Shown here piece by piece: positions 3,756 to 46,537 of a DNA stretch of 64,000 nt. The notes below the pieces were generated by a model that was not told the DNA's origin, made no database searches, and was given only the letters and a program-made list of their open reading frames with translations. A program made the position numbers and the translations under genes. This stretch comes from a virus. Its lineage: Duplodnaviria > Heunggongvirae > Uroviricota > Caudoviricetes. Location of the stretch: IMG/VR virus record IMGVR_UViG_3300014204_013127; one strand, written 5' to 3'. Each line of letters begins with the position of its first letter. Position 1 is the stretch's first letter.

Positions 3756-4769
3756 ATGGACAGAACAATACTTAGCATTATGATTTTGATGTTGGTCTTG
3801 GCTACTGTCTATGCTTTTTATCACACTCGGCACACAACAGTTGTTCCTTTACCACCACCAGTGCCAACTACACCTGTGGATGTTGCTTTGCAAACAATCA
3901 CAGTAGGTCAAATTAAAGAATATGTTGAAACATTGTCTGATTTAAACAAATTTGATGGCAGAGGTGCTGGAACACCTGGGAACGATGCAGCATGTAAGTA
4001 TATTTCTGATATATTTACATCTTGGGGGTATGAGGTTGAATTGCAACAATTTACTTTTGGTGATCGTCAAACCAACAATATTATGGCATCGATCAAAGGC
4101 AAAAATGACGATGAAGTGGTAGTTGTTGGTGCCCATTACGATGGGCAAGGACCAAACCACCCCAGTGCTGATGATAACGCCTCAGGTACGTCGGTAGTTT
4201 TGGCTGTTGCCAAAGCATTCACTCTTTTAAACAGCGAATTAAATCGCACTGTTGTTTTTCAATTATATTCTGCCGAAGAGTATGGGCTAATTGGATCGAA
4301 TTATTATTGCCAACATCCTCTTTTCCCCAAAGGAAATCCCGACATAAAGAAGCATGTTTTTATGTTGAATATGGATATGGTTGGTTATTGGCAAAGAATG
4401 GTGCGTTTTAATTTGCTGATGCCAAATGACCCAACTCCCGATGTAAAAACATTGATTGAGAATTTATCTAAAAAATATCCATTTGCCAGCACAATTACTC
4501 ATCGAGATAATGCCCCCACTGACAATGCCTCTTTTTGCAATGCAGGGGTGCCAGTGGCATATTTGCACACAGGCATACATAAAAATTATCACCAACCTAC
4601 AGATACTCCAGAGAAATTAAATTATGAGGGGTTGGAAAACATAGCAAAATATGTTGTAGAATTTCTTTTGGCAGTAGATCAAGCTGAGAAGCCAATGCAA
4701 CTTAGGAGCGATTTTGTGCCTCTTGAAATTGAAAAAGATCACGGCGAAGCACCATTTTTTCAGCTTTAA
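3756..4769 (+). CDS. M28-family zinc aminopeptidase with N-terminal TM/signal segment
   Basis: Contains VVVVGAHYDGQG, DDNASGTSVVL and EEYGLIGS, which are conserved M28 metal-binding blocks. N-terminus is hydrophobic. Confidence 0.7.
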   Translation: MDRTILSIMILMLVLATVYAFYHTRHTTVVPLPPPVPTTPVDVALQTITVGQIKEYVETLSDLNKFDGRGAGTPGNDAACKYISDIFTSWGYEVELQQFTFGDRQTNNIMASIKGKNDDEVVVVGAHYDGQGPNHPSADDNASGTSVVLAVAKAFTLLNSELNRTVVFQLYSAEEYGLIGSNYYCQHPLFPKGNPDIKKHVFMLNMDMVGYWQRMVRFNLLMPNDPTPDVKTLIENLSKKYPFASTITHRDNAPTDNASFCNAGVPVAYLHTGIHKNYHQPTDTPEKLNYEGLENIAKYVVEFLLAVDQAEKPMQLRSDFVPLEIEKDHGEAPFFQL

Positions 4770-4914: not shown

Positions 4915-6990
4915 ATGGACACCAAATTAGAACAACTCGCCAATTTGTTTGATCGGAAGCAATTCAAAGTGCTTCATGAGGAAATTAGTTTTGCCGAATA
5001 TCTGGAAAGGTGCTATAAGACCCCCAGACTTATTCGTACCGCTTATCAACGATTGTATGATATGATAATGAGCGAAGGCACAAAGACTTTCAAGCGGTAC
5101 AGAAAAACTCACACTCATTATTGTTTCTTCGACAATACTGAAATTCCTATTTTCGGATTGGATGAAACTCTTGAGAGTTTGGTCAAATTCATCCGTGGTG
5201 CTGCTGGCGGATATGGTACAGAAAAGCGTGTGTTGCTTTTGCATGGTCCTGTGGGTTCTTCCAAATCCACTATTTGCCGATGCATCAAACGTGGTATGGA
5301 ATATTACAGCAATACCGAAGATGGCATTTGGTATACCTTCAAATGGGTGAATTTGCCCACGGGGAAAGATGGTATTTATACGCATCCCGAAGATGATTGC
5401 CCAATGCATGAAGAGCCACTTAAGTTGCTTCCCCTAGAATTGCGAAAGCGAGTGGTGGATGATTTGAATGAAGTGTTGAAAAACAACACTCCAGAAAATG
5501 AACGCACGCAGCTTTATACACTTCGCTGCGACAATGAATTAGACCCTCGTTGCAAAAAGTTTATGAATGAGTTGTTGCAAAAATATGAGGGTGATTGGGG
5601 CAAAGTCATCAAGGAGCACATTCGTGTTGTTCGCAAGGTTTATTCTGAGCCCGACCGTATGGGCATTGCTACCTTCCAGCCCAAAGATGAAAAAAATCAA
5701 GATTCGACGGAATTGACCGGCGACATTAATTATGCCAAACTCCCGCATTTTGGTTCAGATTCTGATCCTCGGGCGTTCAATTTCGATGGCGAATTTTGCA
5801 TCGGCAACAGGGGCGTAGTGGAATTCATCGAAGTTCTCAAGTTGGCCAAAGAATTCCTCTACGACCTGTTGGGTGCCTCTCAAGAACAACAAATCAAGCC
5901 CAAGAAGTTTGCTCAAATTTCTGTTGATACGGTTTTGATTGGACATACTAATAATCCTGAATTTGAAAAACTTCGATCTGATAATACGATGGAAGCGTTG
6001 AGAGATCGTACTGTTCGCATCGATGTTCCTTATTTGCTTCGATGGGGTGAAGAGTTGGCAATCTTGGAGCATTATTATGGGACGGGAAAAGTCAAGCAAC
6101 ACGTTGCTCCTCACACTTTGGAAATCGCTGCATTGTGGACAATTCTAACCCGCTTGCAGGATGATAAAGAGGGTAAACTATCGCTGGTTGATAAAGCAAA
6201 ATTGCTTGATGGCCGCAGCTTGCCTGGATATACGGAAGATACCGTCAAGGAATTGCGGGACAAATATCCTACAGAAGGAATGTCTGGTGTGTCCTGCCGT
6301 TATACCCAAGATAAGATTTCCAACTGCCTAGCTGCCCGACACGATTATATCAACCAATTTATGGTTTTGAATGAAATCAAGGAAGGGCTAGATCAATCCT
6401 CTCTTATCACGAACAAAGAGGATGTGGCAAAATATATTAAATGTGTGGATGCCGTCAGAAAGGAATTGGATGATATCTTGAAAAATGAAGTCCAAAAAGC
6501 CCTTGTTGGCGACGAAGATGCCATTATCCGTCTTTGCACAAATTATATTGATAATGTGCGAGCTTATATCAATAAGGTCAAAGTTATCAATCAAATTACC
6601 GGCGAAGATATGGAGCCCAACGAACGGCTCATGAGAAGCATCGAAGAAAAGATTGACATTCCCGAAGCGGGAGTGGATGAATTCCGCCGTGGTATTGCTG
6701 CTTTCATCGGCAGTCTTTCCATTGAAGGAAAAGTTTTCCGATGGGACTCTAATGCCAAGCTGAAAAAGGCGTTGGAAATGAAGCTCTTTGAAGACACCAA
6801 GGACCATATTAAATTGAGTGCCTTGGACATTCGGGGCAGTTCGGTAGTAGACCCCGACATTCAACAAAAAATTGACGCTATCAAACAGCGTCTTATCAAA
6901 CAGTATGGATATAATGAACAATCTGCAACGGATGTTCTGGCTCACGTCGGCAGCATCTTCAGTCGTGGAGATGTGAGCGATGACGAGTAA
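4915..6990 (+). CDS. prkA: PrkA/YeaG-family serine protein kinase (AAA+ N-domain plus kinase domain)
   Basis: 691 aa. Walker A LLLHGPVGSSKST matches the YeaG ILYLLGPVGGGKSS region. Overall length and architecture fit PrkA/YeaG. Confidence 0.8.
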   Translation: MDTKLEQLANLFDRKQFKVLHEEISFAEYLERCYKTPRLIRTAYQRLYDMIMSEGTKTFKRYRKTHTHYCFFDNTEIPIFGLDETLESLVKFIRGAAGGYGTEKRVLLLHGPVGSSKSTICRCIKRGMEYYSNTEDGIWYTFKWVNLPTGKDGIYTHPEDDCPMHEEPLKLLPLELRKRVVDDLNEVLKNNTPENERTQLYTLRCDNELDPRCKKFMNELLQKYEGDWGKVIKEHIRVVRKVYSEPDRMGIATFQPKDEKNQDSTELTGDINYAKLPHFGSDSDPRAFNFDGEFCIGNRGVVEFIEVLKLAKEFLYDLLGASQEQQIKPKKFAQISVDTVLIGHTNNPEFEKLRSDNTMEALRDRTVRIDVPYLLRWGEELAILEHYYGTGKVKQHVAPHTLEIAALWTILTRLQDDKEGKLSLVDKAKLLDGRSLPGYTEDTVKELRDKYPTEGMSGVSCRYTQDKISNCLAARHDYINQFMVLNEIKEGLDQSSLITNKEDVAKYIKCVDAVRKELDDILKNEVQKALVGDEDAIIRLCTNYIDNVRAYINKVKVINQITGEDMEPNERLMRSIEEKIDIPEAGVDEFRRGIAAFIGSLSIEGKVFRWDSNAKLKKALEMKLFEDTKDHIKLSALDIRGSSVVDPDIQQKIDAIKQRLIKQYGYNEQSATDVLAHVGSIFSRGDVSDDE

Positions 6991-7712: not shown

Positions 7713-7894
7713 TGCTGTTTATATTGCTTATGATGTTTTTTGTGTGGTGTTGGTGGCTATGGGTGCCTTCTACAATTTTGTTTATTGTTTTGGCCGCTGT
7801 TAGCAAACATGCAGAGTGGTTGTGGGGCATACCTGTTGCCATTATTATTGAGGAAATTTGGTGGATTGCATACTTTAGTGAACACGTAAAATAA
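7712..7894 (+). CDS. small two-TM membrane protein (Trp-rich)
   Basis: 60-aa ORF with two hydrophobic helices; start overlaps the upstream stop. Confidence 0.3.
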   Translation: MLFILLMMFFVWCWWLWVPSTILFIVLAAVSKHAEWLWGIPVAIIIEEIWWIAYFSEHVK

Positions 7895-8610
7895 TGACAA
7901 CAAGATTTAGTCCAACCCCCAGTGGTAGACTTCACTTGGGGCATTTATATTTAGCATTGATAAACTATCATACCGCTGCCAGAGAGGGCGGCAGATTCAT
8001 AGTTAGGTTTGATGATCTGGATTTTCCAGAGTTGCAATCCTTGGGCAGAGATAAAGTCAATGAATTTTGTGAGACCATAAAGGAAGAGTTTTCTTGGATG
8101 GGTATGAAAGTTGATTTGTATTCTCATACTGCTAAAGAGCATGAAACAAATCTGCAATATTTGTCTGGTGTTCCTGGGTTGGAAAAGGATGATGGAATTA
8201 AATGGTCTCGCCCCTTTGTCAGAAATGAGGATAGGCCCTACCCATTTATTCCCCTAATCACAGCCATCAAGGTTGTGCAAGATCATCGTGAGGGATGTAA
8301 TATAATTATTCGTGGAGAGGACTTAGTATCGGAATCCAGTCTTTATTATTACTTCTGTCGATTGTTGGGGTTTGTTCCTCCAAAGCTATGTTATATACCT
8401 AAATTAATTCAACGAGATGGTCAAGACCTTTCCGATATGTCGAAGACCAGGGGCAATTTCAAGATTAAGGATTATCGTGAAAGAGGCTATGCCCCCCAGG
8501 ATGTTTTGAATTTATTGGCTGAGGCTTGTTTGGAGAAGTCTGACGGGGGTTGGTATGTGGAAAACACAAAGAAAAACCCTGTCTTAGACAAGCCTTACTG
8601 GGAACAATAA
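7894..8610 (+). CDS. truncated class-I GluRS catalytic-core protein (glutamyl-Q tRNA(Asp) synthetase-like)
   Basis: FSPTPSGRLHLGHL is a HIGH-type motif. RFIVRFDDLD, IIIRGEDL and the KMSKS-like DMSKTRG parallel the E. coli GluQ-RS (YadB) blocks. Only 238 aa. Confidence 0.5.
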   Translation: MTTRFSPTPSGRLHLGHLYLALINYHTAAREGGRFIVRFDDLDFPELQSLGRDKVNEFCETIKEEFSWMGMKVDLYSHTAKEHETNLQYLSGVPGLEKDDGIKWSRPFVRNEDRPYPFIPLITAIKVVQDHREGCNIIIRGEDLVSESSLYYYFCRLLGFVPPKLCYIPKLIQRDGQDLSDMSKTRGNFKIKDYRERGYAPQDVLNLLAEACLEKSDGGWYVENTKKNPVLDKPYWEQ

Positions 8611-9690: not shown

Positions 9691-10959
9691 ATGTTAGATG
9701 ATTTGTTGACTACAAGACGCATTGATGAAGATTATCAAGATTTTATTGATGTATATTCAGGTAAAATTCGCAAAGAATTGAGCAAATACATCAAAAATAG
9801 AAATGTTTGGCGATTGCGTGGAAAAAATGGTCGTCTTCGCATTACTGTGCCTCGCATTGATATACCACATATTGTTCGTGGTCAAGAAGAGGAAGGCATC
9901 GGCAGAGGTCCAGGTAAAAAGGGTGATGTTATTGGCAAAGACCCAGAGCCAGGGCAAGGCAATGATGCTGGGCAGGAAGAATCAGAAGGCGTCACCGTCG
10001 AGATATCGATGGAAGAAGTTTTGAAGCTTATGAAAGATGAGTTGGCTCTTCCAAATATGAAGCCCAAGCCGCAGGAAATTTATGAAGAAAAGAAAATAAA
10101 ATATAATGACATAGCTCTTCAAGGTCCAGAATCTTTGCGACATAATCGCCGCACTTGGTTACAGGCACTGAAGAGAATGTGTGCTTCTGGAGAGATTTTT
10201 AATCTACACGAAGTGCCGGGTTGTCCTGATCCCATACAACTGATTACGCCCATTAACAGTGATAAGCGATATCGGCAGTACAAGGAATTTAATGTTCCTT
10301 CTTCTAATGCCGTAATCTTTTTTGCCCGTGACGGTTCTGGCAGCATGGATCAATATAAATGTGATATTGTATCCGATATGGCTTGGTGGATTGATGTTTG
10401 GATTCGACATTTCTACAAACGTACTGAGCGTGTTTATATTTGGCATGATACTATTGCTCAAGAAGTAGATGAGCATAAATTTTATCGTTATCGTTATGGT
10501 GGCGGAACAACTTGTTCATCAGCTTTAAAACTAATTTCCAAGCAGTTTGAGGCTCGTTATCCTCCTGAGAAATGGAATATTTATGTGTTTTATTTCACGG
10601 ATGGCGAAAACTGGGGCGAGGATAATCAGGTTTTTTGTGATACTATTAAAAATGAATTTCCAGGGCACATCGTTAATTTAATTGGTATTACTCAAATTTT
10701 GCCTTGGAGTAGTCAAAATAGCCTAAAGGAATATGTTGATACCAATCTTCCTGATTGTCCTAATTTAAAAACTACGGGAATTGGTATGAACGAAGCCTCT
10801 GCCAGAACGAAAATATCTGCTGGTTATTATAGTACGCCTCAATTGACGGAAGAAGAAAGAAATAATCAAATTACCAAAGCTATTTTGGATTTGTTGGGTG
10901 CTGCCAAAACAAAAGATGGCTATCCAGCAGATGATACGATGACAATGCACCAACATTAA
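9691..10959 (+). CDS. yeaH: YeaH/YhbH-family protein (DUF444, vWA-like)
   Basis: Block-by-block match to E. coli YeaH: DGSGSMD (DVSGSMD), HDTIAQEVDEHKF (HHTQAKEVDEHEF), GGGTTCSSALKL (GGTIVSSALKL), WNIYVFYFTDGENW (WNIYAAQASDGDNW). Confidence 0.8.
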   Translation: MLDDLLTTRRIDEDYQDFIDVYSGKIRKELSKYIKNRNVWRLRGKNGRLRITVPRIDIPHIVRGQEEEGIGRGPGKKGDVIGKDPEPGQGNDAGQEESEGVTVEISMEEVLKLMKDELALPNMKPKPQEIYEEKKIKYNDIALQGPESLRHNRRTWLQALKRMCASGEIFNLHEVPGCPDPIQLITPINSDKRYRQYKEFNVPSSNAVIFFARDGSGSMDQYKCDIVSDMAWWIDVWIRHFYKRTERVYIWHDTIAQEVDEHKFYRYRYGGGTTCSSALKLISKQFEARYPPEKWNIYVFYFTDGENWGEDNQVFCDTIKNEFPGHIVNLIGITQILPWSSQNSLKEYVDTNLPDCPNLKTTGIGMNEASARTKISAGYYSTPQLTEEERNNQITKAILDLLGAAKTKDGYPADDTMTMHQH

Positions 10960-10971
10960 AGGAAATAAATA

Positions 10972-12570
10972 GTGGCAAGCAAAATGATGCGTGGTTCTCC
11001 GATCTTGATGGGTGATAGCACAATCCCTGGCGTAGTGTTGCCTAAGGAATTGCAAAATGTCATTCCCAATATTATGAAAGCAGCAACCGACTTTGGATTG
11101 GTGTATTATCCAACAGTCGTGCAGATGCTGACTTATGATGAAATTAGCGAAGTAGCATCCTATGGTGGATTCCCTGTTCGTTATCCGCATTGGCGTTGGG
11201 GAATGGAATACAATGAATTGCAACAAGGTTATGAACATGGGCTGCATCGCATTTACGAAATGGTTGTAAATAGCAATCCTTGTTATATTTACTGTCTCGA
11301 TTCCAATACGTTGGTGGATAATGTTACGGTTGTTGCTCATGCTTTAGGACATAATGACTTTTTCAAAAATAATGTTTACTTTTCGCCAACTAGTCAAAAT
11401 ATGATGAATGAATTGGCGAATCATGGTACTCGAATTCGCAAATACATGCAACGATGGGGCAAAGAAAAAGTCACAGAATTTTTAGATCATGTGCTAAGAA
11501 TTACCACGTTGGTCGATCCAGCTAGTGCTTGGGAGCAGAGAAAATTTAAAGACCCGATCAAACAGGACGTGAGGCATTATCATCATCCAAAACATTTGCC
11601 GGTTCAAGAGGGGCATGATTATATGGAACCTTGGCTCAATCCAGAAGAATGGATGAAGGAGCAAAGGAAGAGGTTGGAAAAAAGGGAGGTGGCCGAAGAA
11701 TTAAACATTTTCAAAGAGCCAACAAAAGACATTTTGCGGTACATTCGAGATTATGCACCTTTGCAGCCTTGGCAGTCTGATATTGTTGCTATGATTTATG
11801 AGGAAGAAATATATTTCAGTCCTCAACGACCGACCAAAATGCTCAACGAAGGCTGGGCTAGTTTTGTTGATTTTAACTTAATGGCAGTACAGGGTTTCGT
11901 TAGTCTGGGCCAGTCAGAACACGATAATGGCATTGTTGAGTATGCTATTCACAAAATGGGGGTATTGGGCGGCAAGTATTCGATGAATCCCTATAAATTA
12001 GGATTCTGTATTTTTCAAGATATTGAAGAACGTTGGAATAAGGGCCAGTTTGGACCCCTGTATGATGAGTGCCGAGATATCAAGCAGCGGGAAGATTGGG
12101 ATGAAAAATTGGGCTTGGGGCACGATAAAGTATTAGAGGTTAGAAAATTCTATAATGATTTCACCGCTATTTCAGAATTCTTCACAGAAGATTTTTGCAA
12201 TAAATATGAATTCTTTGAGTGGGAACATCGACCTAATGGAGAGTATGTAATCAAGAGTCGTGACTATAAGAAAATTAAAAAGAAATTAATTGGCGATTAT
12301 TTGAACGGCGGATTGCCAGATGTTCGGCTGGCTGATCCCAACCATTTAAATAGAGGGCACATGTTGTTACAGCATCAGTGGGATGGATATCCGCTATATC
12401 CTTCCTATGCAAAGGATACCATCCTTTCTCTGCGAAGATTGTGGGGGTTGAACAGAGAAGTCATATTGGCTACCAGGGACAAAGATGGCGAGGAATTGAT
12501 CTATGTCACCAGATCACCAGATACTGTTGTTGCGGTCAACAGACAGGAATATGACAAAATCATTGGATAA
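10972..12570 (+). CDS. spoVR: SpoVR/YcgB-family protein
   Basis: YPHWRWGMEY, EMVVNSNPCYIYCL and AHALGHNDFFKNN match the conserved YcgB/SpoVR core. 532 aa. An in-frame ATG at 10981 is an alternative start. Confidence 0.8.
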   Translation: MASKMMRGSPILMGDSTIPGVVLPKELQNVIPNIMKAATDFGLVYYPTVVQMLTYDEISEVASYGGFPVRYPHWRWGMEYNELQQGYEHGLHRIYEMVVNSNPCYIYCLDSNTLVDNVTVVAHALGHNDFFKNNVYFSPTSQNMMNELANHGTRIRKYMQRWGKEKVTEFLDHVLRITTLVDPASAWEQRKFKDPIKQDVRHYHHPKHLPVQEGHDYMEPWLNPEEWMKEQRKRLEKREVAEELNIFKEPTKDILRYIRDYAPLQPWQSDIVAMIYEEEIYFSPQRPTKMLNEGWASFVDFNLMAVQGFVSLGQSEHDNGIVEYAIHKMGVLGGKYSMNPYKLGFCIFQDIEERWNKGQFGPLYDECRDIKQREDWDEKLGLGHDKVLEVRKFYNDFTAISEFFTEDFCNKYEFFEWEHRPNGEYVIKSRDYKKIKKKLIGDYLNGGLPDVRLADPNHLNRGHMLLQHQWDGYPLYPSYAKDTILSLRRLWGLNREVILATRDKDGEELIYVTRSPDTVVAVNRQEYDKIIG

Positions 12571-14115: not shown

Positions 14116-15453
14116 ATGAATGACATAGTTGGTTTCGAGCATTTGCATCGCCATTCTCATTATTCTTTGTTGGATGGATACGGCACAGTTGAAGAGTATG
14201 CGATTTATTCCAAAGAAATAAATCAACAATATCTTTGCATTACCGATCACGGCATGATGAGTGCTGTTCCTAACCAAATCGCTTGCTGCGATAAACACGG
14301 TTTGCAGCCAATTTTTGGCGTAGAAATCTATTATCAACCAAAACAGCCCTGTGTGCAAAAGGGCGAGACTATGCAGCAGTATCTTAAAGAGATGCCACCA
14401 GAAGCCCGCAAGGCGATGCAGAAGTCATATCACATGACCTTGTGGGCCAAAAACGAGACAGGATATAAAAATCTTGTTCGTTTAACTTCTTTTGGATGGC
14501 TACACGGCTTCTACTATAAGCCTCGCATTAATTGGGATCAATTAGTGCAGCATAAAGAGGGGTTGATGGTTGGCAGCGGTTGTTTTAATAGTCCAGTGGG
14601 ACAAGCATTTAAAAACTTCGGTCCCGAAATGGCTATAGAGACCATCAAGAAATATCACAACTTGTTTGGTGAAAATTATTATTTGGAAATCATGTTGTTG
14701 GATTTTGTTAAACAAAAGCCCTACAACCAATTCATTGTTCAAGCACATGCAAAATTAGGCATTCCGTTAGTGCTCACACAAGACTGTCATTATTGCAAAA
14801 AAGAAGACAGCAAAATGCAACGGTTAATGCTTATGACTGGCTCTAAGAGAACGGTAGCCGATATGGAGCAAGCCGTTGCCGAAGGTAAAGCTGAAGAATA
14901 TTTTGAGTTGCAAGACACTAATCTCTGGATGAAATCCGAAGAGGAGATCAATGAGAAATGGGCATCTGACCCTTATCTCGATAAGGATTTGTTTAATGCT
15001 GCCAAGGCAAATACTGTGCGTATATGCGAACAATGCAAGGGAGTGCAACTGGATCGCTCGGTAAAATTGCCAAAAATTCCCAATGATGATGAAGTGTTGA
15101 AAAAACTTATCCAAGAGGGTGCGACTAAAAGAGGCATACCAAAGACTAGAGAATACTTGTCCAGAATGCAGGAAGAATACACCTTGGTGAAAGAGAAGGA
15201 GTTTTCTTCGTATTTTATTATTCAAAAAATGATGGTTGACGCTGCCCGTCAGAAATGCATCGAGTTATACGGCGGCACGGGAAGCACGGCAAGAGGGCCG
15301 GGCAGAGGCTCTGGTGCCGGGTTTATGATAAATTATCTTTTGGGAATAACTGATGTTGACCCGGTGAAGTATGATCTGTTATCATCAAGGTTCCTGAGCC
15401 CTGCTCGTGGTGGCAAGCAAATGAAAATCAGGTTTGATGACAAGCCATTATGA
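14116..15453 (+). CDS. dnaE: DNA polymerase III alpha subunit, N-terminal fragment (PHP domain to the thumb/palm boundary)
   Basis: The PHP motif [15 protein letters not shown] is present. The fragment ends ...[40 protein letters not shown], which parallels E. coli DnaE ~340-400 ([38 protein letters not shown]), followed by a stop codon. Confidence 0.8.
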   Translation: [445 protein letters not shown]

Positions 15454-18933: not shown

Positions 18934-20160
18934 TTAATCTCTTTTCATATATTGATTTAATGCATGAATAAGATGGTCCATTGCAAACTTTCCTCGATGC
19001 ATTCCCATATGTTTGCCCATCATGCCCATTATGTGTTTCCCCATTCCAGGCATTTCGCCGCCTAATTCATCTTCACCACCTAGTTCATCGCCTAACTCAT
19101 CTTCGTCACCTAGCTCATCCTCATCGCCTAATTCATCTTCGTCACCTAGTTCATCCTCATCGCCTAATTCATCTTCGTCACCTAGTTCATCCTCATCTTC
19201 AAAATCATCATCATCCTCTGGATAATCTTCGTCATCGTCTTCAAAATCTTCTGGTTCGCCATCATCACCAATGCGACGGGTGACTTCTTCATCGTCTCCT
19301 ATATTGTCTATTCCAATAGGAGGACCAACGATTTCATTCATGGCTCGTACTAATGCATTGCAACGCATAGAGCCTTTTTGTTCTTCTCCCAAAAGATTAG
19401 TAAGGGATCGATAAGACTCAGGATATTCCATCAACATTTCCATCAGGCTGCCGATTAATTTTTTTTGTCTCAACGCCACAACCAAATCTCGCAAAATGTT
19501 TTCATTGTTGGCTACTGAAGCAATGTATTTAATAGCTTGTGGCACTTCTGCTTGATGAACGCCCTCAACAGATCGCTCTTCTTTAATCATGTATTGGGTG
19601 AATTCGCTCAGGGGCATGCCTTTTGTTTTCTTTAAGAAGGTCTCTGTTTTTGTAGTGTAATCCCCAACACTTTTTCCGCCCGGTATATGTGGTGAATCGC
19701 CTGCCTTGAGTTTAATTTCTTCTCGGGGAATACTCCCTAAGTTACCCAGTCCTTCATCACTATTTTTGGGCTTAGCATCTGTGCCTTGCTTATAGGCAGC
19801 GGGTTTGCTGGCTTTGGGAGCCTTAGTATCCCAATTTTTTCCCTTGGTCTTGGCTTCGGGAGGAGCAACGGGTGGCTTGAAGGGATAGTCAGCAATAATT
19901 TCCGTGGCTGGTTTTTCTACCACAGAGCTTGCCTGCTTTTTTTCCAAAAACTTAGCCCATAATCCTTCTTTGACCTGAGGTTGCTCATCGGCTACTTTTT
20001 TTATATTTTTGTGTGTCTTGGCTTCTTTGGGTGGCTTATTGGGTTCGCCGCAAAGATCATCGGCTCCAGTTAGCTTGTCGCCTGTTTTGATAATTTTGGG
20101 TTTGCGAACCAACTCTGGGTCTTTTCTTTCGAGAAACTTGTTGAATTTGGGATATTTCAT
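18934..20160 (-). CDS. hypothetical protein with C-terminal (DEDELG)n acidic tandem repeat and His/Met/Gly-rich tail
   Basis: 408 aa. The basic Lys/Pro-rich N-terminal half and the strongly acidic repeat are encoded by an 18/36-bp tandem DNA repeat. Confidence 0.5.
   Translation of the reverse strand: MKYPKFNKFLERKDPELVRKPKIIKTGDKLTGADDLCGEPNKPPKEAKTHKNIKKVADEQPQVKEGLWAKFLEKKQASSVVEKPATEIIADYPFKPPVAPPEAKTKGKNWDTKAPKASKPAAYKQGTDAKPKNSDEGLGNLGSIPREEIKLKAGDSPHIPGGKSVGDYTTKTETFLKKTKGMPLSEFTQYMIKEERSVEGVHQAEVPQAIKYIASVANNENILRDLVVALRQKKLIGSLMEMLMEYPESYRSLTNLLGEEQKGSMRCNALVRAMNEIVGPPIGIDNIGDDEEVTRRIGDDGEPEDFEDDDEDYPEDDDDFEDEDELGDEDELGDEDELGDEDELGDEDELGDEDELGDELGGEDELGGEMPGMGKHIMGMMGKHMGMHRGKFAMDHLIHALNQYMKRD
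19055..19200 (-). repeat. coding tandem repeat (18-bp units alternating in a 36-bp period, about 6-8 copies) encoding DEDELG
   Basis: Direct reading of ...cacctagttcatcctcatcgcctaattcatcttcgt... repeated. The + strand Ser-rich ORF 19013-19225 is an artefact of this repeat. Confidence 0.6.
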
Positions 20161-20404: not shown

Positions 20405-21232
20405 ATGTTAATGGAATTCAAAAATTGGTTAGAAATGAGCAGCTTACGGGATATTTTGAAAAATGTGCCACAGTCCGCACAATGGCACCCAGAGGGGTCT
20501 GTGTTTTTACACACAAGGCTTGTTAGAAAAGCTCTGCCTGTAGCTGTGAAAATGTTTGAGAAAGCTAGGGGAGAAGAGGCTTTTTCAAACTTGCCATCGG
20601 TCAGCGATGGGGATATAATGCTTTTGAGGATACTTGCTTGGCTGCATGATGTGGGCAAAGCCTCCACCGCAGGCTACAAATATCCCGATAATACCATCAA
20701 ACCGTTGTCTGATTTTCCTGGGCACACTGTAAAACAGATGATGTCACCTGACTTCGGACCAGGGAAATGGACAGCCCATGCTCACGAAGACCCAGAGCAT
20801 TATGAGCCGCAAATAAAAAAATTAGGCAATAAGTGGCAGTCTATTCTGGACAACCTATCACCAGAAGATAAGGAAATTGTGTGGTTTGTAGTTCCAAAAC
20901 ATATGGAGTTTAGTGAGAAGGGACTTAGTAGACACATTAAGGCATCAATTGGAATTGATGGCAAATTCGCCCCAGATCGCAAGATTAAAATATGGATTGT
21001 TTTCAAATTGATGGACCTAATGGGTCGAGGATCGGGGTTGGATATAGAATCAGGGAAGAGTTTTTTGGAGATTCTTATGAACGTGGCAGAAGAGAAGATG
21101 CGTAAAAGTTTACGTACTAAACCAGTAGAGCCAAACACCCCAGAGGAGTTTGCAAAGTATTTGCTGGCTAAGGGGGTGAAACCCGATGTGGTTCAGGCAG
21201 CAGTTCGAGGGAAATTTGCAGCATATATTTAA
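20405..21232 (+). CDS. HD-domain phosphohydrolase-like protein
   Basis: H...LRILAWLHDVGK resembles the HD metal-binding motif; 275 aa. Confidence 0.4.
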   Translation: MLMEFKNWLEMSSLRDILKNVPQSAQWHPEGSVFLHTRLVRKALPVAVKMFEKARGEEAFSNLPSVSDGDIMLLRILAWLHDVGKASTAGYKYPDNTIKPLSDFPGHTVKQMMSPDFGPGKWTAHAHEDPEHYEPQIKKLGNKWQSILDNLSPEDKEIVWFVVPKHMEFSEKGLSRHIKASIGIDGKFAPDRKIKIWIVFKLMDLMGRGSGLDIESGKSFLEILMNVAEEKMRKSLRTKPVEPNTPEEFAKYLLAKGVKPDVVQAAVRGKFAAYI

Positions 21233-21241
21233 GGAGGCTAC

Positions 21242-21445
21242 ATGTTCTGGGTTTATGTTTTAATCGGATTTTTTTTGGCCCTTGTGGGTGGTGTTGGAAT
21301 GTTGTTTGCCCTGATTATGGGAGCCAAACCAGACCCGAGTATTTGGAAAATGATTGCAGTTTTTCTACTTCCTGCTTTGGGGTATTGGATGGGATTGATT
21401 GGTGCATTTCTCTACGGCTTGGGGGAAGCCTTTAAGGGTGGCTAG
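21242..21445 (+). CDS. small two-TM membrane protein
   Basis: 67 aa, highly hydrophobic and Gly-rich. Confidence 0.3.
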   Translation: MFWVYVLIGFFLALVGGVGMLFALIMGAKPDPSIWKMIAVFLLPALGYWMGLIGAFLYGLGEAFKGG

Positions 21446-21789
21446 ATTTCTCTAAACTGTTCTTTTGCACCCTCTATAAAATGTACCAAGTATCGACCAT
21501 TTGTGCAGAATCTTTTTCCTAATATGGAAATTTCTTTTGCATGAATTCTTCTATGACACTTGCAGCAGCAAGTGATGGTGTTAGATTCTGTGTATTTTCC
21601 ACCATCGCTGCCGGGGAGGATGCGGTGGACATCTAATGTAGAATAATCAGTTTCCCCACAGAAACAGCATTTTTTATCCAGGTGTTTTTTACTCTTTTTA
21701 TTCATGATGTTCGTATAGCAATATAGGAGTAAATAACATGTGGTTTGATAAACAATCTGGTTGTGCTCGAATGACTGTTCAAGAAGCAT
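21442..21789 (-). mobile_element. free-standing HNH homing-endonuclease-like gene
   Basis: CCFCGETDY...VHRILPGSDGGKYTESNTITCCCKCHRRIH carries the HNH zinc-finger and catalytic His/Asn pattern; 115 aa. Confidence 0.6.
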
Positions 21790-22121
21790 TTGATTTGGGG
21801 CTCATTCCATATTCTAAATGTGTTTATGGCCCTGCCTCCCCTCAAAAGGGTGCGAGGGATGCCATGCTTACTTGTTCAGCCGAATTTTTGCACGATAGTT
21901 CTTTGATAAAAAAAACCTTGTATGCGGTGCGTGGTGGTCCAATCTCTCCAGAGGATGCCAGAGAGTGGAAAAAGTGGTGGGAGATATTGAAGAATTTGGA
22001 CTTTGACGCCGTTGTTCGTAAATACAATGTGAAATTCGAAAAAACAGAGCATGATTTGATGTGGGAGCCAAAGCCTTATTATGATCCCCCCGGATGGAGT
22101 GAAGAGAATGGTTGGAGCTAA
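21738..22121 (+). CDS. hypothetical protein
   Basis: 127-aa ORF overlapping the HNH gene 5' end on the opposite strand. Confidence 0.3.
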   Translation: MWFDKQSGCARMTVQEAFDLGLIPYSKCVYGPASPQKGARDAMLTCSAEFLHDSSLIKKTLYAVRGGPISPEDAREWKKWWEILKNLDFDAVVRKYNVKFEKTEHDLMWEPKPYYDPPGWSEENGWS

Positions 22122-22271
22122 TGGGGTTTACAAACTAAGTTTCTGAAGTATAATGGCGTTACCTGACCGAAGCGAAAGCTTAGCGTACAGGCCCCATTCA
22201 TGCGTTTGAAAGACAGTGAGGGAGTTTTCGGCTTCTTCGTAAACTGTGTGTGGATGGCAAAAAGCCGAAAC

Positions 22272-22618
22272 GGGGGTGAATAGAATCGAACGACGGTTTT
22301 AGCCCTTGAGTTGCATGTCATGGCTGACCAACAGGCCATGTAAAAAAGTTGGTCAAAAATTTAGTTGCTAACGATTACGTTGCACTGGCTGCGTGAGTGG
22401 CCACGGGTTGAGGAAGCTCGCCAAGGCGTCCAAAAACCCGTCAAAAATTTGGCTGCGTTCAATGTAGATGGCGTAAATTGAACTAAGATAACGCCGATAG
22501 GTCGTATGAGCCTTTGCTTGCTGTGGCTTATACAGACGACATAAACGGCAAGATACACATGTAGAAACTCATTGGCGTGCCGTGCGTGACCTGGGTGCGA
22601 TTCCCAGCACCTCCACTA
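22272..22618 (+). ncRNA. ssrA: tmRNA (SsrA), standard one-piece form; tag reading frame GCT AAC GAT TAC GTT GCA CTG GCT GCG TGA = ANDYVALAA
   Basis: The 5' GGGGGTGAATAGAATCGAACGACGG parallels E. coli GGGGCTGATTCTGGATTCGACGGG. The 3' end has T-stem CTGGG/CCCAG, loop TGCGATT and acceptor strand CACCTCC-A (22608-22615). That strand pairs with GGGGGTG (22272-22278) and includes the G3:U70 wobble that is the Ala identity element. The tag ORF at 22367-22396 ends in ALAA plus a stop. Confidence 0.8.
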
Positions 22619-22721: not shown

Positions 22722-23222
22722 ATGCCAAGATTTTTTGCCCCTATTGAAGCTGTTGAATTGGCTGGGAAAATCGGTGCATCCCAACGTAATGTGTATGATT
22801 ACAATTTTGTGCGAAGTGATTTCAAGGTCGAATTCGATTTTGAAAATGTAACCACAGATACCAGCAATTGTTGTTATGAATTAGAGGGATTGCTTGGTTA
22901 CAACACATTAGACAACGGCATGACTTTTTTTGGTGTCAGTGCTGGCGGCGATTGGGAAATACCAGTCTTCTTTGTGGTCTACTGGGATGGCAAAAAATTA
23001 CGAGCCTATATTCCTACAGATGGCAATCCGTGGAATACAGACACAAAGCAAGCATACGGCAATGCAGATCAAGATTGGGATAATCCAGATGCCGAAGATG
23101 ATGACGTAAAGAACCTGAATAAATTATACGGTCCAGGTCACACATCCCACGAAGATGCCCCTGATTATGACAAAGAAAAAATCATCGCAGACATCAAGGC
23201 AAGAATTTTGCCGAAAGTTTAA
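22722..23222 (+). CDS. hypothetical protein
   Basis: ATG at 22722. The ORF track offers an upstream non-ATG start at 22689, which would abut the tmRNA. Confidence 0.35.
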   Translation: MPRFFAPIEAVELAGKIGASQRNVYDYNFVRSDFKVEFDFENVTTDTSNCCYELEGLLGYNTLDNGMTFFGVSAGGDWEIPVFFVVYWDGKKLRAYIPTDGNPWNTDTKQAYGNADQDWDNPDAEDDDVKNLNKLYGPGHTSHEDAPDYDKEKIIADIKARILPKV

Positions 23223-23224
23223 CC

Positions 23225-23653
23225 ATGTTTGATGAAAAATGCGTTTGGGAATATTTTGACGGCGGTATGCCTGGAGTAAAAAAAAGAATCTGCGAAGGTG
23301 TTGCAGAGTCTTTTCGCAAGCGAGCCAAAGAAGATGTTGAATTGGCGACACTAGAAGAACATATTGGGTTGCCAAAAGGAATTCTATCCAAAATAATTCA
23401 TCAAGTTGAATTTGAGGATGGGGAATTTAACTCAAGGCTTTTGCAAACTCTGTGTGCATGTTGCAGACTTGATATGCATGATGTTTTTTGCGTGAGAAAA
23501 CTATCAGAAGAGGAAAAAGCAGATATTATTGCCGCTGCAACTGCCGAGCAATTTGTTTGCGTATGTGGTGCGGGCGATGCTGGTTGGTCTCAGGATGACA
23601 GAATAGATTTGTTCCTTCTTACTACAGCATTGCGTTCTTTAGATGAAAAATAA
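23225..23653 (+). CDS. hypothetical protein, possible HTH DNA-binding
   Basis: LATLEEHIGLPKGILSKIIHQ is helix-turn-helix-like; a strong terminator follows. Confidence 0.3.
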   Translation: MFDEKCVWEYFDGGMPGVKKRICEGVAESFRKRAKEDVELATLEEHIGLPKGILSKIIHQVEFEDGEFNSRLLQTLCACCRLDMHDVFCVRKLSEEEKADIIAAATAEQFVCVCGAGDAGWSQDDRIDLFLLTTALRSLDEK

Positions 23654-25850: not shown

Positions 25851-26861
25851 ATGTCAGTTGAGAGTCAGCGAATATTAAATGATATTTTGGAAAAAAAAGG
25901 TAGCACCATCAATTTGGGGGCTATTATGACCAAGATGCCCAGAAATTCTCAAAACCCCTATGCTATAATGGATGAAGAAGAAGAAAAATTTGGACGTATG
26001 ACACAATGGACCACATCTGATGGTACTCGTTTCTTTCCTGCTGGAAAGACATTTCCTTTGCTATGTCCAGGTGTTTATGAAATTAAATTTTCTAACACCA
26101 AGGGATATTATTTTGAGAAGGTGCAGGTAAAAACAGAAGGGTTATTACGGTTTCCTGATAGCGAATCCGCAAAGGTTGTGGCAGAGATTCAGAACTTCTG
26201 GACAAAAGAGCAAACCTATGCCGATTTTGGGCTCACCTATCGCCGTGGATTGATTCTGTGGGGTCCAGCGGGTTCTGGCAAGAGTTGTACCATTCAGATC
26301 GTTATGGCCGATGTAATTGAACGTGGCGGCGTTGTGTTCAAGTTTAATTCTGTGCCTCATATGTTTTTGGAGGGGGTGCGATTATTCAGAGAAGTGCAGC
26401 CTGACACAAAGATTGTGGTATTGATGGAAGACATTGATTCCTTGTTGGAAGAGTACGGAGAGTCGGAGGTGCTCAATATTTTGGATGGTGTTGAGAAAAT
26501 TGAACGGGTGGTTTTTTTAGCAACCACGAACTATCCAGAGAAATTGGGGGATCGAATTATCAATCGTCCTTCCAGATTTGACAGAAGATTTATGATGCCC
26601 AATCCCAATAAGAAATGCAGACAATTGTATTTCGAGCATTTAGCGAAACAAAACCCCACCATTAAAATTGATATTGCCAAATGGACAAAGGATACGAGTG
26701 GTTTTTCTATTGCACATTTGAAAGAGTTGTTTATTGGGGTGTGCATTTTAGGAGAAGAATACAAGGATGCCGTGGAAACATTGAGAATTATGATTGAAGA
26801 GCGTCCCAAATCTGACGAGAGTGATGGATTTGGGTTTATTCCCAAGAAAAATGAGGACTGA
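25851..26861 (+). CDS. AAA+ ATPase
   Basis: Walker A GPAGSGKS, Walker B IVVLMEDIDSL and an SRFDRRF arginine-finger-like segment. Confidence 0.65.
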   Translation: MSVESQRILNDILEKKGSTINLGAIMTKMPRNSQNPYAIMDEEEEKFGRMTQWTTSDGTRFFPAGKTFPLLCPGVYEIKFSNTKGYYFEKVQVKTEGLLRFPDSESAKVVAEIQNFWTKEQTYADFGLTYRRGLILWGPAGSGKSCTIQIVMADVIERGGVVFKFNSVPHMFLEGVRLFREVQPDTKIVVLMEDIDSLLEEYGESEVLNILDGVEKIERVVFLATTNYPEKLGDRIINRPSRFDRRFMMPNPNKKCRQLYFEHLAKQNPTIKIDIAKWTKDTSGFSIAHLKELFIGVCILGEEYKDAVETLRIMIEERPKSDESDGFGFIPKKNED

Positions 26862-36081: not shown

Positions 36082-38700
36082 ATGAGAGATTATAAAAAAG
36101 AGCTACAGTTGTTGTGCCAGCAAAAAATAGAGAGCTTAGGACTATGTTCAAACGCTCAATATGCAGATCGTCTGAAATTGGAGTTTAGACATATCGACTG
36201 GCAAGATGAGCACTATTATTTAGTGGATTTGTACGAAAGAAAATGTAAGTTTGCCAAAAATGAAAACAATATGTTGGTGGTCCATCTTTTAGGACTAGCC
36301 GATGAATTTGATATCAGCCAACCGCCAAAGTTTACGTTTATTGCCGAGTTCCCCGACATAGATTCAGATTTCTTGCCTGAAATTCAACAGTGGTTAAAAA
36401 ATGTCTGGGCTCCCCAAACCTTTGGGGCGGAATATGTTTGTAATATTGGTAATTATGCCACTTATGGCATCAAATCTGCTTTACAGGATATGGCCAGAGT
36501 TTATGGCTTGAGTCATGATGAAGTCAACACGGTTACCACCCAGATTGAAGATAAAGATGATGAAAATAAACCCATTACGTGGGAAAAAGCTTTGGAGCTA
36601 AACAAGGAATTGGCTGCTTATTGCGAGCAATATCCAGAGGTATATGATGCTGCCAAGCGATTGTATGGCAGGGTAAGGGGAATGGGCAAACATGCTGGTG
36701 GTTTGATTATTTCTAGCATGCCCTTGGCTGATTTTGTTCCATTGGTTGTGGACAAGCAAGGCAATCCGCTTTCAGCATGGACTGAAGGACTGCATGCTCA
36801 AGACTTGGCCCCTGTAGGATTGGTGAAAGTCGATGTATTGGTTATTACAAACTTAGTGCAAATAGCTAAGTGCTTGAAATTGATTCGTGAGCGATACGGT
36901 ATCGACAGGATGTGTAATTTAGAGGCACAGGATGATTGGTCGGACACAGAGAAGTACCAAAATGATCCTGATGCTATTGCTTTGGCAAACGAAGCAAAAT
37001 TAAAGTGCATTTTCCAATTTGATTCTCCCGGCATTAGGGATTTGGCAAAAAAGGGTGGTGTGACTTCATTTGATGATCTAGTGGCATTCACTAGTTTATA
37101 TCGTCCTGGTCCTATGGGCTCTCAACTCCACACCACCTATTGTAAGCGAAAAAAGGGCGAGCCATACGAGTTGCATCCATTGTTAAAGCCTATTTTGGAA
37201 AAAACATATGGGGTGATGTGTTACCAAGAACAGATCATGAAAATCTTCAATGTTATTGGGGGTTTTCCATTGCCTCAATGTTATAAAATTGTGAAGGCTA
37301 TTTCCAAGAAAAAAGGCGAGGTTTTCCAAAAAGCCAAAGTTCAATTTTTGGAACAATGCCAACAAAGATTGGATTATTCTGAGCAAGAAGCTAATGAATT
37401 TTTTGAGAGTATAGCAAAGTTTTCGGGATATGCTTTCAATTTAAGTCATGCTACTTCATATTCGTTTGTTTCTGCAATGCTGTTGTATTTGAAAGCTCAT
37501 TATCCTTTAGAGTTCTTTGCAGCTATTTTGAGTTGTGAAAAAAATGCTGACAAGATTAAAGAATACAGATTAGAAGCCCAAAGATTTGGGGTGCCGATCA
37601 ATCGTATTGATATCAATAAGTCGAAGGTTCATTTTGAAATTATAGACAATGAAATATATTTAGGGTTTGCGGACATTAAGGGTGTTGGTGATGAGGTTGC
37701 TGAAAAAATCGTGGCAGGACAGCCCTATAGTTCTTTTGTAGATTTTATGGAACGATTTGGCACTTATGCTGATGTTTTGAAGCCACTGATTGCTTTACGG
37801 GTTTTTTCTGATGAACCGATGGTTTTGTATGAATTTGCTGAATTCTATCGTTGCAAAAGCAAATCACGCAAAGATCGAGATAAGAGATATATTACTTCTC
37901 AACAAGATCGTCTAGATGAAATTATATCCTTAGTACAATCAGAATATGAGAAAATAATAGATGGCGATTGGTGTGCTCAGTTTAAAGACCTGAAGAAAAA
38001 GGAATTTATTGAAAAGCATAGTGCTATGTGTTTGGACGGCATGGCCGAAGATGTTTTTACAGCCATCAATCAATATAACAAATCTAAAGCCAACAATGAG
38101 AAAAAGGTAGCACTCGATACCGTTATCACAATGGATAATTGGAATCCATCGGGAAAAATAGATCACGAAATGCAGGTTTTATTATCACATCACTTGTCTA
38201 TTGCCGAAAACAAATATTATGGTTTTCCTTGGGATTATGTGTTGACGCAATCTCCTGATTATAAAGGAAGAACCTTTGAGGAGTTCGATATAGCAATTGC
38301 ACAGGGCGATCATGCCATTAAGCCGGTGGAGGTGCAGATAATAGAGAAGCCTCGAATTATGAAGTCTAAGAAAGGATACAAGGTCAAAGTTGTGGACGGC
38401 AATGGAAGAGCAGAAACTGTTACTATTTGGAAAGATGATTTTGAAAGATTTGAGGAAGAAATTGCTTGGTGGGAGCCGACATGCGAGTGGGGCAATTTAT
38501 TACAAATGAGGCTTAAAAAGCCTATGGGGGATTGGAAAGATTACACATTTGAAAGTTTCCCCAGAGAGCTTAGGAAAGAAATGGTGCCTAAGGAAAAAAG
38601 CCAAGATGGTCGTTTGAATGTTTTGCGTTGGCCGGAAAGTGCCATAGTCAAACAAGATGTAATAGATAAAATCAAGGAAGATTTTACTATTATAGACTAG
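36082..38700 (+). CDS. dnaE: DNA polymerase III alpha subunit, C-terminal fragment (palm catalytic aspartates onward, fingers, OB-like)
   Basis: FPDIDSDF is the PDFDVDF catalytic motif. GKHAGGLIIS matches GxHAxGvvI. YCKRKKGEPYELHPLLKPILEKTYGVMCYQEQIMKI matches the conserved fingers region. 872 aa, including an ~85-aa N-terminal extension with no DnaE counterpart. Confidence 0.8.
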   Translation: MRDYKKELQLLCQQKIESLGLCSNAQYADRLKLEFRHIDWQDEHYYLVDLYERKCKFAKNENNMLVVHLLGLADEFDISQPPKFTFIAEFPDIDSDFLPEIQQWLKNVWAPQTFGAEYVCNIGNYATYGIKSALQDMARVYGLSHDEVNTVTTQIEDKDDENKPITWEKALELNKELAAYCEQYPEVYDAAKRLYGRVRGMGKHAGGLIISSMPLADFVPLVVDKQGNPLSAWTEGLHAQDLAPVGLVKVDVLVITNLVQIAKCLKLIRERYGIDRMCNLEAQDDWSDTEKYQNDPDAIALANEAKLKCIFQFDSPGIRDLAKKGGVTSFDDLVAFTSLYRPGPMGSQLHTTYCKRKKGEPYELHPLLKPILEKTYGVMCYQEQIMKIFNVIGGFPLPQCYKIVKAISKKKGEVFQKAKVQFLEQCQQRLDYSEQEANEFFESIAKFSGYAFNLSHATSYSFVSAMLLYLKAHYPLEFFAAILSCEKNADKIKEYRLEAQRFGVPINRIDINKSKVHFEIIDNEIYLGFADIKGVGDEVAEKIVAGQPYSSFVDFMERFGTYADVLKPLIALRVFSDEPMVLYEFAEFYRCKSKSRKDRDKRYITSQQDRLDEIISLVQSEYEKIIDGDWCAQFKDLKKKEFIEKHSAMCLDGMAEDVFTAINQYNKSKANNEKKVALDTVITMDNWNPSGKIDHEMQVLLSHHLSIAENKYYGFPWDYVLTQSPDYKGRTFEEFDIAIAQGDHAIKPVEVQIIEKPRIMKSKKGYKVKVVDGNGRAETVTIWKDDFERFEEEIAWWEPTCEWGNLLQMRLKKPMGDWKDYTFESFPRELRKEMVPKEKSQDGRLNVLRWPESAIVKQDVIDKIKEDFTIID

Positions 38701-46322: not shown

Positions 46323-46537
46323 ATTGTAGAGCGATTTTGCGGGTGGAACATGGAAAGTCGCCCGAAGAAAACTTTAGGAATTTGTTGGGTAAGTTTAGAA
46401 AAAAAACAACGGATTCTGGTGTGATGACCTTGTGGAAATCAAAACAGTATTTTGAAAGCAAGGGAGAACGCCGTAGGCGAAAAGAAAAAGCGGCCCAAAT
46501 GAAACGCATAAAAGCAAATAGACCAAAAACAGTATAA
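46313..46537 (+). CDS. rpsU: ribosomal protein S21
   Basis: 74 aa. FRNLLGKFRKKTTDSGVMTLWKSKQYFESKGERRRRKEKAAQMKRIKANR matches the S21 pattern ALRRFKR...GvL.E.rrReFYEKP...RKR....A.KR. Confidence 0.6.
   Translation: MAVNCRAILRVEHGKSPEENFRNLLGKFRKKTTDSGVMTLWKSKQYFESKGERRRRKEKAAQMKRIKANRPKTV

Follow-up and report, generated by a model that had tools for sequence, protein, structure and literature searches.

A one-piece tmRNA gene, probably of a huge phage, at a locus conserved among related phages

Transfer-messenger RNA (tmRNA) genes are already documented in phages. Hudson, Lau and Williams 2014 (PMC4131195) listed ssrA in Bacillus phage G and in cluster C mycobacteriophages (Bxz1, Catera, Rizal and others), and in mycobacteriophage DS6A an ssrA derivative consisting of the tRNA-like domain only, which was proposed to inhibit tmRNA. 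For the largest phages, Al-Shayeb et al. 2020 (PMC7162821) report that they carry tmRNAs, SmpB and translation genes, and a tmRNA is noted for Mar_Mega_1 (bioRxiv 2021.07.26.453748). Here, we analyzed a tmRNA gene in a 64-kb stretch of DNA (64,000 nucleotides, hereafter the window) from the IMG/VR record IMGVR_UViG_3300014204_013127. A preliminary description, made from the letters of this stretch alone, had read the gene as a phage-encoded one-piece tmRNA with the tag peptide ANDYVALAA. From its sequence, its relatives and its gene neighborhood, we consider the gene genuine, probably functional, and probably carried by a huge phage that has a genome of at least 340 kb and is related to the phage record LR756511.1; we put the probability of this reading at roughly 0.85.

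The one-piece tmRNA and its tag are borne out by both ARAGORN and Infernal, the two programs that the preliminary description had proposed as checks. ARAGORN made a single tmRNA call in the window, a one-piece molecule (ssrA) at 22272..22616 on the plus strand with the tag ANDYVALAA followed by a stop. The Rfam tmRNA family RF00023 matched at 22272..22618 (+) over the full length of the model (positions 1-374), with 119.6 bits against a gathering score of 47 and an E value of 3.7e-46. It was the sole Rfam family matched in the 64 kb; the Rfam scan of the window returned no rRNA, and ARAGORN returned no tRNA genes there. By ARAGORN, Rfam and direct reading, the encoded mature tmRNA extends from G1 to the discriminator A (22272..22615, +; 344 nt). 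The window tmRNA sequence is also present, 100% identical, in two further assemblies of the same phage.

Direct reading of the plus strand recovers the expected parts of the molecule. The 5' strand of the acceptor stem, GGGGGUG (22272..22278), holds the G3 of the G3:U70 alanine identity pair, and the 3' strand, CACCUCC (22608-22614), is followed by the discriminator A at 22615 (together 22608..22615). All 7/7 pairs form, G3:U70 included, and they lie in the register read earlier. The T-arm CUGGG-UGCGAUU-CCCAG (22591..22607, +), with a 5-bp stem and a 7-nt loop that has G at its second position, and the internal frame GCU AAC GAU UAC GUU GCA CUG GCU GCG UGA (22367..22396, +), which opens with the resume codon GCU and closes with the stop UGA, are likewise readable as first described. 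The frame is directly preceded by UUUAGUU, which is similar to the UAGUC that precedes the resume codon of E. coli tmRNA. For the tRNA-like part, the preliminary description named its elements correctly and overlooked two peculiarities, the deviating T-loop and the absence of an encoded CCA. Positions 22616-22618 read CUA, not CCA, and the Rfam match extends over these three bases. Since the gene has CUA after the discriminator, CCA must be added post-transcriptionally.

The assignment to a phage, also part of the preliminary description, is supported by comparison with LR756511.1, a 595-kb 'uncultured phage' that we take, from its accession series, to belong to the huge-phage set of Al-Shayeb et al. 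This record is the best phage match of the window's DnaE and PrkA. In total, 25 window proteins match one 50-kb stretch of LR756511.1 with their order kept, at 23-68% identity. The window is also related to IMG/VR viral contigs, and both these contigs and LR756511.1 have a tmRNA at the same position. The LR756511.1 tmRNA (122.2 bits, tag ANPEFAMAA) lies between the same neighbors as the window gene, in the order SpoVR, a homologue of the window's acidic 408-aa protein on the opposite strand, tmRNA, and an AAA ATPase that is 52% identical to the protein encoded at 25851-26861. Strong PHROG matches in the window include DnaE, PrkA, IF3, PhoH, endonuclease VII and a phage metallopeptidase. A dUTPase, a dCMP deaminase and radical SAM enzymes are encoded as well, and most of the open reading frames (ORFs) are small, run in the same direction and are without family.

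To follow the locus further, we took the AAA ATPase alignment as a marker and collected 5 IMG/VR and 80 metagenome loci, on contigs of up to 424 kb. In 19 loci, as well as in LR756511.1, ARAGORN placed a tmRNA on the strand of the ATPase and upstream of it, at a distance of 0.5-4 kb. An nhmmer profile built from the ARAGORN finds located the tmRNA upstream of the ATPase and on its strand in 36 loci, again in addition to LR756511.1. Roughly 13 loci in which the sequence reaches 4.9 kb or more upstream of the ATPase gave no tmRNA. The ATPases of the tmRNA loci are 48-61% identical, and the genes between tmRNA and ATPase vary. Intact copies number 33, from the window, LR756511.1 and 31 loci, and every one of them (33/33) has 7/7 acceptor pairs with G3:U70, the discriminator A and 5/5 pairs in the T stem. 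CCA is encoded in 1 of the 32 intact copies other than the window's. Outside the tag frame, the window tmRNA is 50-57% identical to those of its phage relatives. The tags of the clade are highly diverse and include ANDYVALAA, ANPEFAMAA, ATQNEYALAA, ANTFAVAA, AEKATLPLAA, AEENTLRLAA, ANRNVAPLRMAA, VETSTPLRMAA and GNQNIVTLAPKSNLRFAA; all of the tag frames are open, and each tag ends in [L/M/V/F]AA. We propose that the tmRNA gene would be inherited vertically within a broad huge-phage clade.

We drew the secondary structure by hand from the window sequence, with standard pairs throughout; all elements lie on the plus strand, and a tmRNA position plus 22271 gives the window position. The acceptor helix H1 (tmRNA 1-7/337-343) is followed by helix 2, whose segments 2a-2d pair the 5' strand at 22293..22318 with the 3' strand at 22557..22583 (tmRNA 22-47/286-312), the latter including the conserved CAUGUAGA. 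Between helix 2 and the resume codon sits the first pseudoknot, PK1 (22319..22354), in which CAUGGC/GCCAUG (tmRNA 48-53/64-69) is interleaved with GACCAAC/GUUGGUC (55-61/77-83). The resume codon occupies tmRNA 96-98, and the stop codon (123-125) lies in the loop of helix 5, UGGCU/GGCCA (22386..22403; tmRNA 115-119/128-132). PK2 (22404..22453) comprises CGGGUU/AACCCG, GGA/UCC and GC/GC (tmRNA 133-138/164-169, 141-143/158-160 and 145-146/155-156), with the loop GCCAA pairing with UUGGC (149-153/178-182). PK3 (22457..22495) comprises GUUCAAU/AUUGAAC (tmRNA 186-192/206-212), with the loop GGCGU pairing with ACGCC (199-203/220-224). PK4 (22504..22552) is formed by GUAUGAGCC/GGCUUAUAC (tmRNA 233-241/254-262), with the loop CUUGCUGU pairing with ACGGCAAG (246-253/274-281). 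All four pseudoknots, on whose folding the preliminary description had made its case depend, can be drawn.

This structure, pseudoknots included, was projected onto 15 same-subtype relatives, with the 3' partner of each pair slid by 1-3 columns as a control. Standard pairs occupied 81.9% of cells, compared with 38-46% in the slid controls, and both sides change in 67/93 pairs. The covariation score was 0.541 as opposed to 0.11-0.18 in the slid controls, and 0/500 shuffles reached the observed values. The best-supported elements are PK1, with 97% and 94% of cells paired in its two stems and 11/13 pairs changing on both sides; helix 2d, which is 100% paired, with compensatory changes present; PK4, with 81.5% and 92.5% paired and 16/17 pairs changing on both sides; and the T-arm stem (tmRNA 320-324/332-336), which is 100% paired with 5/5 pairs compensatory. 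Support is reasonable for the main stems of PK2 (81-83% paired) and moderate for helix 5 (70.7%). PK3 is 61-70% paired, in a region where the alignment is uncertain, and the second stem of PK2 (PK2b) reaches 44% on the MAFFT alignment, with compensatory examples visible by eye, such as CCCGA/UCGGG in locus L020. RNAalifold, applied to 30 phage tmRNAs, recovered helix 2, one PK1 stem, PK4 and the T-arm, with 26/31 pairs compensatory. Because helices and pseudoknots covary and the tag frames are intact, the comparison indicates that this RNA family is kept functional over long divergence.

The tRNA-like domain of the window gene departs from the family at two positions. Its D-loop analogue, AAUAGAAUCGAACG (22279..22292, +), has AG where the family consensus has GG, and its T-loop (22596-22602), UGCGAUU, has G at the second position, compared with U in the RF00023 consensus (UUCGAUU). 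A tmRNA T-arm has a 5-bp stem and a 7-nt loop of the UUCRANY type that contacts a GG in the D-loop analogue; the window agrees with this in its stem and loop length. The second T-loop position is nearly always U in tmRNAs and tRNAs, and in tRNA the D-loop residue G18 contacts pseudouridine 55 of the T-loop. The D-loop AG is found in six copies (five distinct sequences), namely the window and loci L060, L030/L031/L068 and L048, and exactly those six carry G at T-loop position 2, in the loops UGCGAUU, GGCAGAA, GGCAGGU and GGCGGUA. The approximately 27 copies with D-loop GG all have the T-loop UUC. Both the window and L060 have GG-type copies as their nearest relatives, so the paired change arose at least three times, and this joint recurrence in at least three lineages suggests that the odd T-loop of the window is compensated rather than defective. 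The D-loop AG and the T-loop G are likely to form a swapped version of the tertiary contact, analogous to G18-pseudouridine 55. ARAGORN misses every AG/G variant except that of the window. In four related phage tmRNA genes, the T-loop is split after GGUUCG by group I introns (RF00028, 61-96 bits, threshold 50), at 3279-3505 in L064, 1213-1456 in L042, 2024-2281 in L037 and 1029-1256 in L093.

A degenerate pattern for ANDYVALAA plus stop matched 1 of 185,579 species-representative genomes, an uncultured Ignavibacteria metagenome-assembled genome (MAG), and neither the exact nor the degenerate tag patterns had any match in IMG/VR and the JGI metagenomes. The Ignavibacteria match lies in a bona fide bacterial tmRNA of 183.8 bits (CAZSIT010000005.1; locus L003, 3469-3827). 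The two tag frames are identical at 27/30 nt, with a 23-nt exact run, and use the same synonymous codon in 7/9 sense codons. Outside the frame the two RNAs are 41% identical; within the frame, no phage relative exceeds 63% identity to the window. A rough estimate of the chance of such codon sharing is ~10^-3 to 10^-2, with the part of the run reading UGGCUGC conserved in the family anyway. We regard the match as a hint of the host of the phage, and the tag cassette may track the host ssrA, by convergence or by short-patch recombination. The more specific proposal, that the body of the tmRNA is phage-inherited and the 30-nt tag cassette was copied from, or driven to match, the host ssrA, is a doubtful one that we put forward tentatively. 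If it is true, the phage would mark rescued proteins with exactly the host degron, the tag would name the host as a relative of one Ignavibacteria MAG, and the tags of huge phages could predict hosts. The promoter-like sites that precede the phage tmRNAs follow the TTGACA/TATAAT pattern and not the Bacteroidetes TTTG/TAnnTTTG pattern; this agrees, as a weak indication, with a host that does not belong to the classical Bacteroidia.

The preliminary description had suggested that the gene could rescue stalled ribosomes and that its tag is a ClpXP-type degron ending in ALAA; this is what is usually inferred for such a gene, and it fits the conserved features. G3:U70 and A73 constitute the identity set of alanyl-tRNA synthetase (AlaRS), and in E. 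coli SsrA tagging and ClpXP-type degradation require the resume context, PK1, the stop codon and the ALAA end. We propose that the gene would be transcribed from its own sigma-70-like promoter, that host RNase P would remove a leader of ~110 nt, and that the 3' end would be trimmed and supplied with CCA by a CCA-adding enzyme. Host AlaRS would charge the RNA with alanine by way of G3:U70 and A73. With SmpB, probably that of the host, and EF-Tu, the charged RNA would enter ribosomes that have stalled on broken or non-stop mRNAs, at their empty A site. Translation would resume on GCU, append (A)ANDYVALAA, terminate at UGA and release the ribosome, and the ALAA-ended product would go to ClpXP-type proteases. 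The benefit to the phage would be that ribosomes are kept available while host and phage mRNAs are cut during infection. The tmRNA most likely depends on the host for AlaRS, SmpB, RNase P and the CCA-adding enzyme.

Several observations weigh against a functional tmRNA borne by a phage. The T-loop is without its near-universal second U and the D-loop without one G, which could impair function, and the RF00023 score of 119.6 bits compares with 183.8 for the tmRNA of the Ignavibacteria MAG. The MAFFT alignment of the relatives gives PK2b and PK3 weak support, in part because MAFFT aligns those parts poorly. SmpB was not found in the 64-kb window with the E. coli sequence as the query (this sequence gave 100% matches to annotated SmpB genes), nor in LR756511.1 by tblastn with two queries. 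GenBank labels the longest contig that carries window proteins, of 340,072 bp, as 'MAG: Proteobacteria (Pseudomonadota) bacterium' (proteins MCK9458368.1, MCK9458359.1 and MCK9458329.1). Finally, capsid, terminase and portal genes are absent from the matches listed for the window and from 10 kb beyond either end.

The lack of a detected SmpB bears on how the RNA would work. SmpB is encoded by the Lak phages (MK2500xx), of which Prevotella is a known host, and by five other huge phages (LR756501-04 and LR745206). In Lak-A1 and LR756502 its gene adjoins tRNA clusters, and no tmRNA lies within 20 kb of it. Since SmpB was not found in the window or in LR756511.1, though other huge phages encode it, the lineage studied here probably relies on host SmpB. 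The same observation could be taken to mean that the RNA is a decoy, an inhibitor of host trans-translation that soaks up SmpB, AlaRS or EF-Tu. The two deviations of the tRNA-like domain from near-invariant positions, AG in the D-loop and G in the T-loop, would suit a decoy, and there is a precedent in the discussion of the tRNA-like-domain-only molecule of mycobacteriophage DS6A (PMC4131195). For a decoy, however, the message part would be superfluous, yet the resume context, an open frame ending in AA, the stop codon and PK1-PK4 are all kept with compensatory changes, and the paired recurrence of the D-loop and T-loop changes fits a maintained fold. We consider a decoy improbable.

A functional tmRNA may also have its tag read by a factor of the phage, in addition to or instead of host ClpXP. 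The candidate is the conserved downstream neighbor at 25851..26861 (+), a YjoB/Cdc48-D2-like AAA ATPase that is placed in the classical unfoldase clade, and tagged proteins would then be redirected to a phage-controlled fate. The linkage of tmRNA and ATPase, co-oriented in 36 loci and LR756511.1 despite the 48-61% identity of the ATPases, is consistent with such a partnership, as is the strong divergence of the clade tags (LRLAA, LRMAA, LPLAA and others). This linkage may nevertheless be plain synteny, because the whole region is collinear between relatives. In the window the two genes are five ORFs apart, and the tag itself has the canonical ALAA end. Neither a protease nor an adaptor domain was detected, and a tmRNA is missing from approximately 13 loci whose upstream sequence is long enough to show one. 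We therefore give little credence to a dedicated phage reader of the tag and retain ordinary rescue, with degradation by ClpXP-type proteases, as the preferred reading.

The bacterial label raises the question of whether the contig comes from a bacterial chromosome, with the tmRNA as the cell's own ssrA. Exact copies of window proteins occur on contigs from four or more samples, including ERZ27247350, SRR18595299 and SRR6484787, and the 340,072-bp contig is the longest of these. Along with its NCBI source name, a bacterial origin would account for the cellular-type genes of the window (IF3, S21, DnaJ, DnaE and PrkA/YeaH/SpoVR) and for the failure to find virion genes there or in the 10 kb adjoining each end. 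A bacterial chromosome is nonetheless hard to reconcile with the 50-kb collinearity with the deposited phage LR756511.1, with the relatedness to IMG/VR viral contigs, or with ORFs that are mostly small, in one direction and familyless. The window also contains HNH genes, endonuclease VII, a phage metallopeptidase and a dnaE in two parts, whereas S21 is the only ribosomal protein, tRNA and rRNA genes number zero, and no smpB lies beside ssrA. Exactly such a gene set is described for huge phages by Al-Shayeb et al. (PMC7162821). We judge a bacterial origin very unlikely; the 340,072-bp contig is, on its gene content and synteny, probably a huge phage binned as a bacterium. Because virion genes were not found and the GenBank label is bacterial, the phage assignment rests on synteny with recognized phage records and on gene content. 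A BLAST search with the tmRNA and its 3-kb surroundings gave no nucleotide match in 50,697 phage records, and IMG/VR single-protein searches with the ORFs flanking the tmRNA returned no relatives.

ssrA is a common attachment site, at whose 3' end many temperate phages and islands integrate and carry that piece with them, and one PHROG 'transposase' match is present in the window, but reading the tmRNA as a 3' ssrA remnant of such an integration is effectively ruled out: the match is full length, G1 through discriminator, and synteny is conserved, with the gene at the same internal position in distant relatives. No integrase family is among the matches listed for the window (25 of 35 and 25 of 31 families matched in the two family listings).

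Upstream of the phage tmRNA gene, a candidate sigma-70-like promoter, TTTACA-16 nt-TATAAT, matches the consensus at 11/12 positions (22127..22154, +) and begins directly after the stop codon of the upstream ORF. In many relatives the tmRNA is likewise preceded by promoter-like sites, with 10/12 or more matches. Between the window's promoter candidate and the mature 5' end, as placed by ARAGORN and Rfam, lies a putative precursor 5' leader of ~110 nt (22155..22271, +), a predicted RNase P substrate. No intrinsic terminator was found after the tmRNA gene. An HNH endonuclease ORF at 21442-21789 (-; Pfam HNH E 1.2e-6) belongs to the context and is not part of the tmRNA. The preliminary description had placed it immediately upstream on the opposite strand; its side and strand were right, and the immediate adjacency was not, as a gap of ~480 nt holding the ORF 21738-22121 (+) lies between.

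The neighboring ORFs 21738-22121, 22722-23222, 23225-23653 and 20405-21232 have no Pfam, PHROG or PDB match. The HD-like protein of 20405-21232 was considered as a CCA-adding or repair enzyme and rejected, with zero matches. One relative of it is 85% identical, and no tmRNA was located in the 10 kb around its homologues at 43-44% identity. One locus with a distant relative of this protein (44% identity; L004/L005, 1131-6492) contains ten tRNA-Leu genes with five anticodons in 5.4 kb. The acidic 408-aa protein (18934-20160, -), whose homologue adjoins the tmRNA in LR756511.1 too, has a long (DEDELG)n repeat near its C terminus (repeats at 19084-19251).

Elsewhere in the window, genes related to translation and protein folding encode a GluRS/GlnRS-like piece (7894-8610), S21 (46313-46537), peptide deformylase (46757-47290), IF3 (52038-52559) and DnaJ (54131-55132). 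The GluRS/GlnRS-like piece spans only the first 74/314 profile positions, and S21 is the sole ribosomal protein found in the window. A trio of PrkA kinase, DUF444 (YeaH-like) and SpoVR, a bacterial stress or sporulation module that is here phage-borne, is encoded at 4915-6990, 9691-10959 and 10984-12570; it is kept in LR756511.1 at 56-68% identity, and weaker PrkA homologues exist in Thermus phages. DnaE (Pol III alpha) is split between ORFs 14116-15453 (+) and 36082-38700 (+), which lie on either side of the tmRNA at a distance of 20.6 kb from each other. The first ORF comprises the PHP domain and the start of the NTPase domain, and the second the remainder, with ~64 extra N-terminal residues. 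In LR756511.1, DnaE is a single ORF of 1179 aa (L011 25838-29377, -). A split intein as the cause of this arrangement is not supported by the sequences at the break, which show no obvious intein ends. A search with the window's M28 peptidase (3756-4769) brought up metagenomic proteins and one homologue from a 'Crenarchaeota archaeon' MAG with a 546-kb contig, and gave no lead on the host. The ORF from ~60640 to 64000 (+) runs past the end of the window; in the full contig it encodes 1131 aa. It includes a (CAAGCT)10 repeat and matches no family.

Because phage and huge-phage tmRNAs are already published, the window tmRNA is not a new category, and it adds an example to a documented phenomenon, tmRNA in very large phages. 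The conserved tmRNA-ATPase locus, the breadth of the tags, the covariation of the two loops and the intron-bearing copies are not described in the passages searched of these papers, and we regard them as modest additions to what is known. Taken across the relatives, the tmRNA is retained at one locus and under structural constraint throughout a whole clade of huge phages, and its tags vary widely. This clade-wide retention suggests a lasting need for ribosome rescue in these phages rather than an accidental pickup of the gene. In addition, a GenBank 'bacterial' MAG contig is flagged as a probable 340-kb phage, the tag supplies a testable host lead, and the natural variants of the tRNA-like domain, with D-loop AG plus T-loop G or with intron-interrupted T-loops, would be useful for studies of tmRNA recognition.

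Compared with E. coli SsrA (tag ANDENYALAA) and bacterial one-piece tmRNAs in general, the window gene shares G3:U70, A73, a long helix 2, PK1 before the resume codon, a start on an Ala codon, the ALAA end, the stop codon in the loop of helix 5, PK2-PK4 and a T-arm beside the acceptor stem. It differs from them in being phage-borne, in its nine-codon frame, in its unencoded CCA, in the D-loop AG and the T-loop UGCGAUU, and in having no smpB nearby. The Ignavibacteria MAG tmRNA has the identical tag ANDYVALAA but a bacterial context (Lon, inositol monophosphatase and tRNA-Lys), an encoded CCA and canonical loops. Like Bacillus phage G and the cluster C mycobacteriophages, the window has a full ssrA in a large virulent phage genome; unlike theirs, its tmRNA belongs to another phage lineage with other hosts and has no BLAST-detectable similarity to them. 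The DS6A molecule is likewise a phage-borne ssrA derivative, but it is without message and pseudoknots, whereas the window gene has every part. The closest likeness in genome kind is to the huge-phage tmRNAs of PMC7162821, into whose described repertoire the window's IF3, S21, peptide deformylase and aminoacyl-tRNA synthetase fragment fit. With LR756511.1 the window shares the same tmRNA micro-synteny, although the tags differ (ANDYVALAA versus ANPEFAMAA), the RNAs are ~48% identical, and the loops of LR756511.1 are the canonical GG and UUC.

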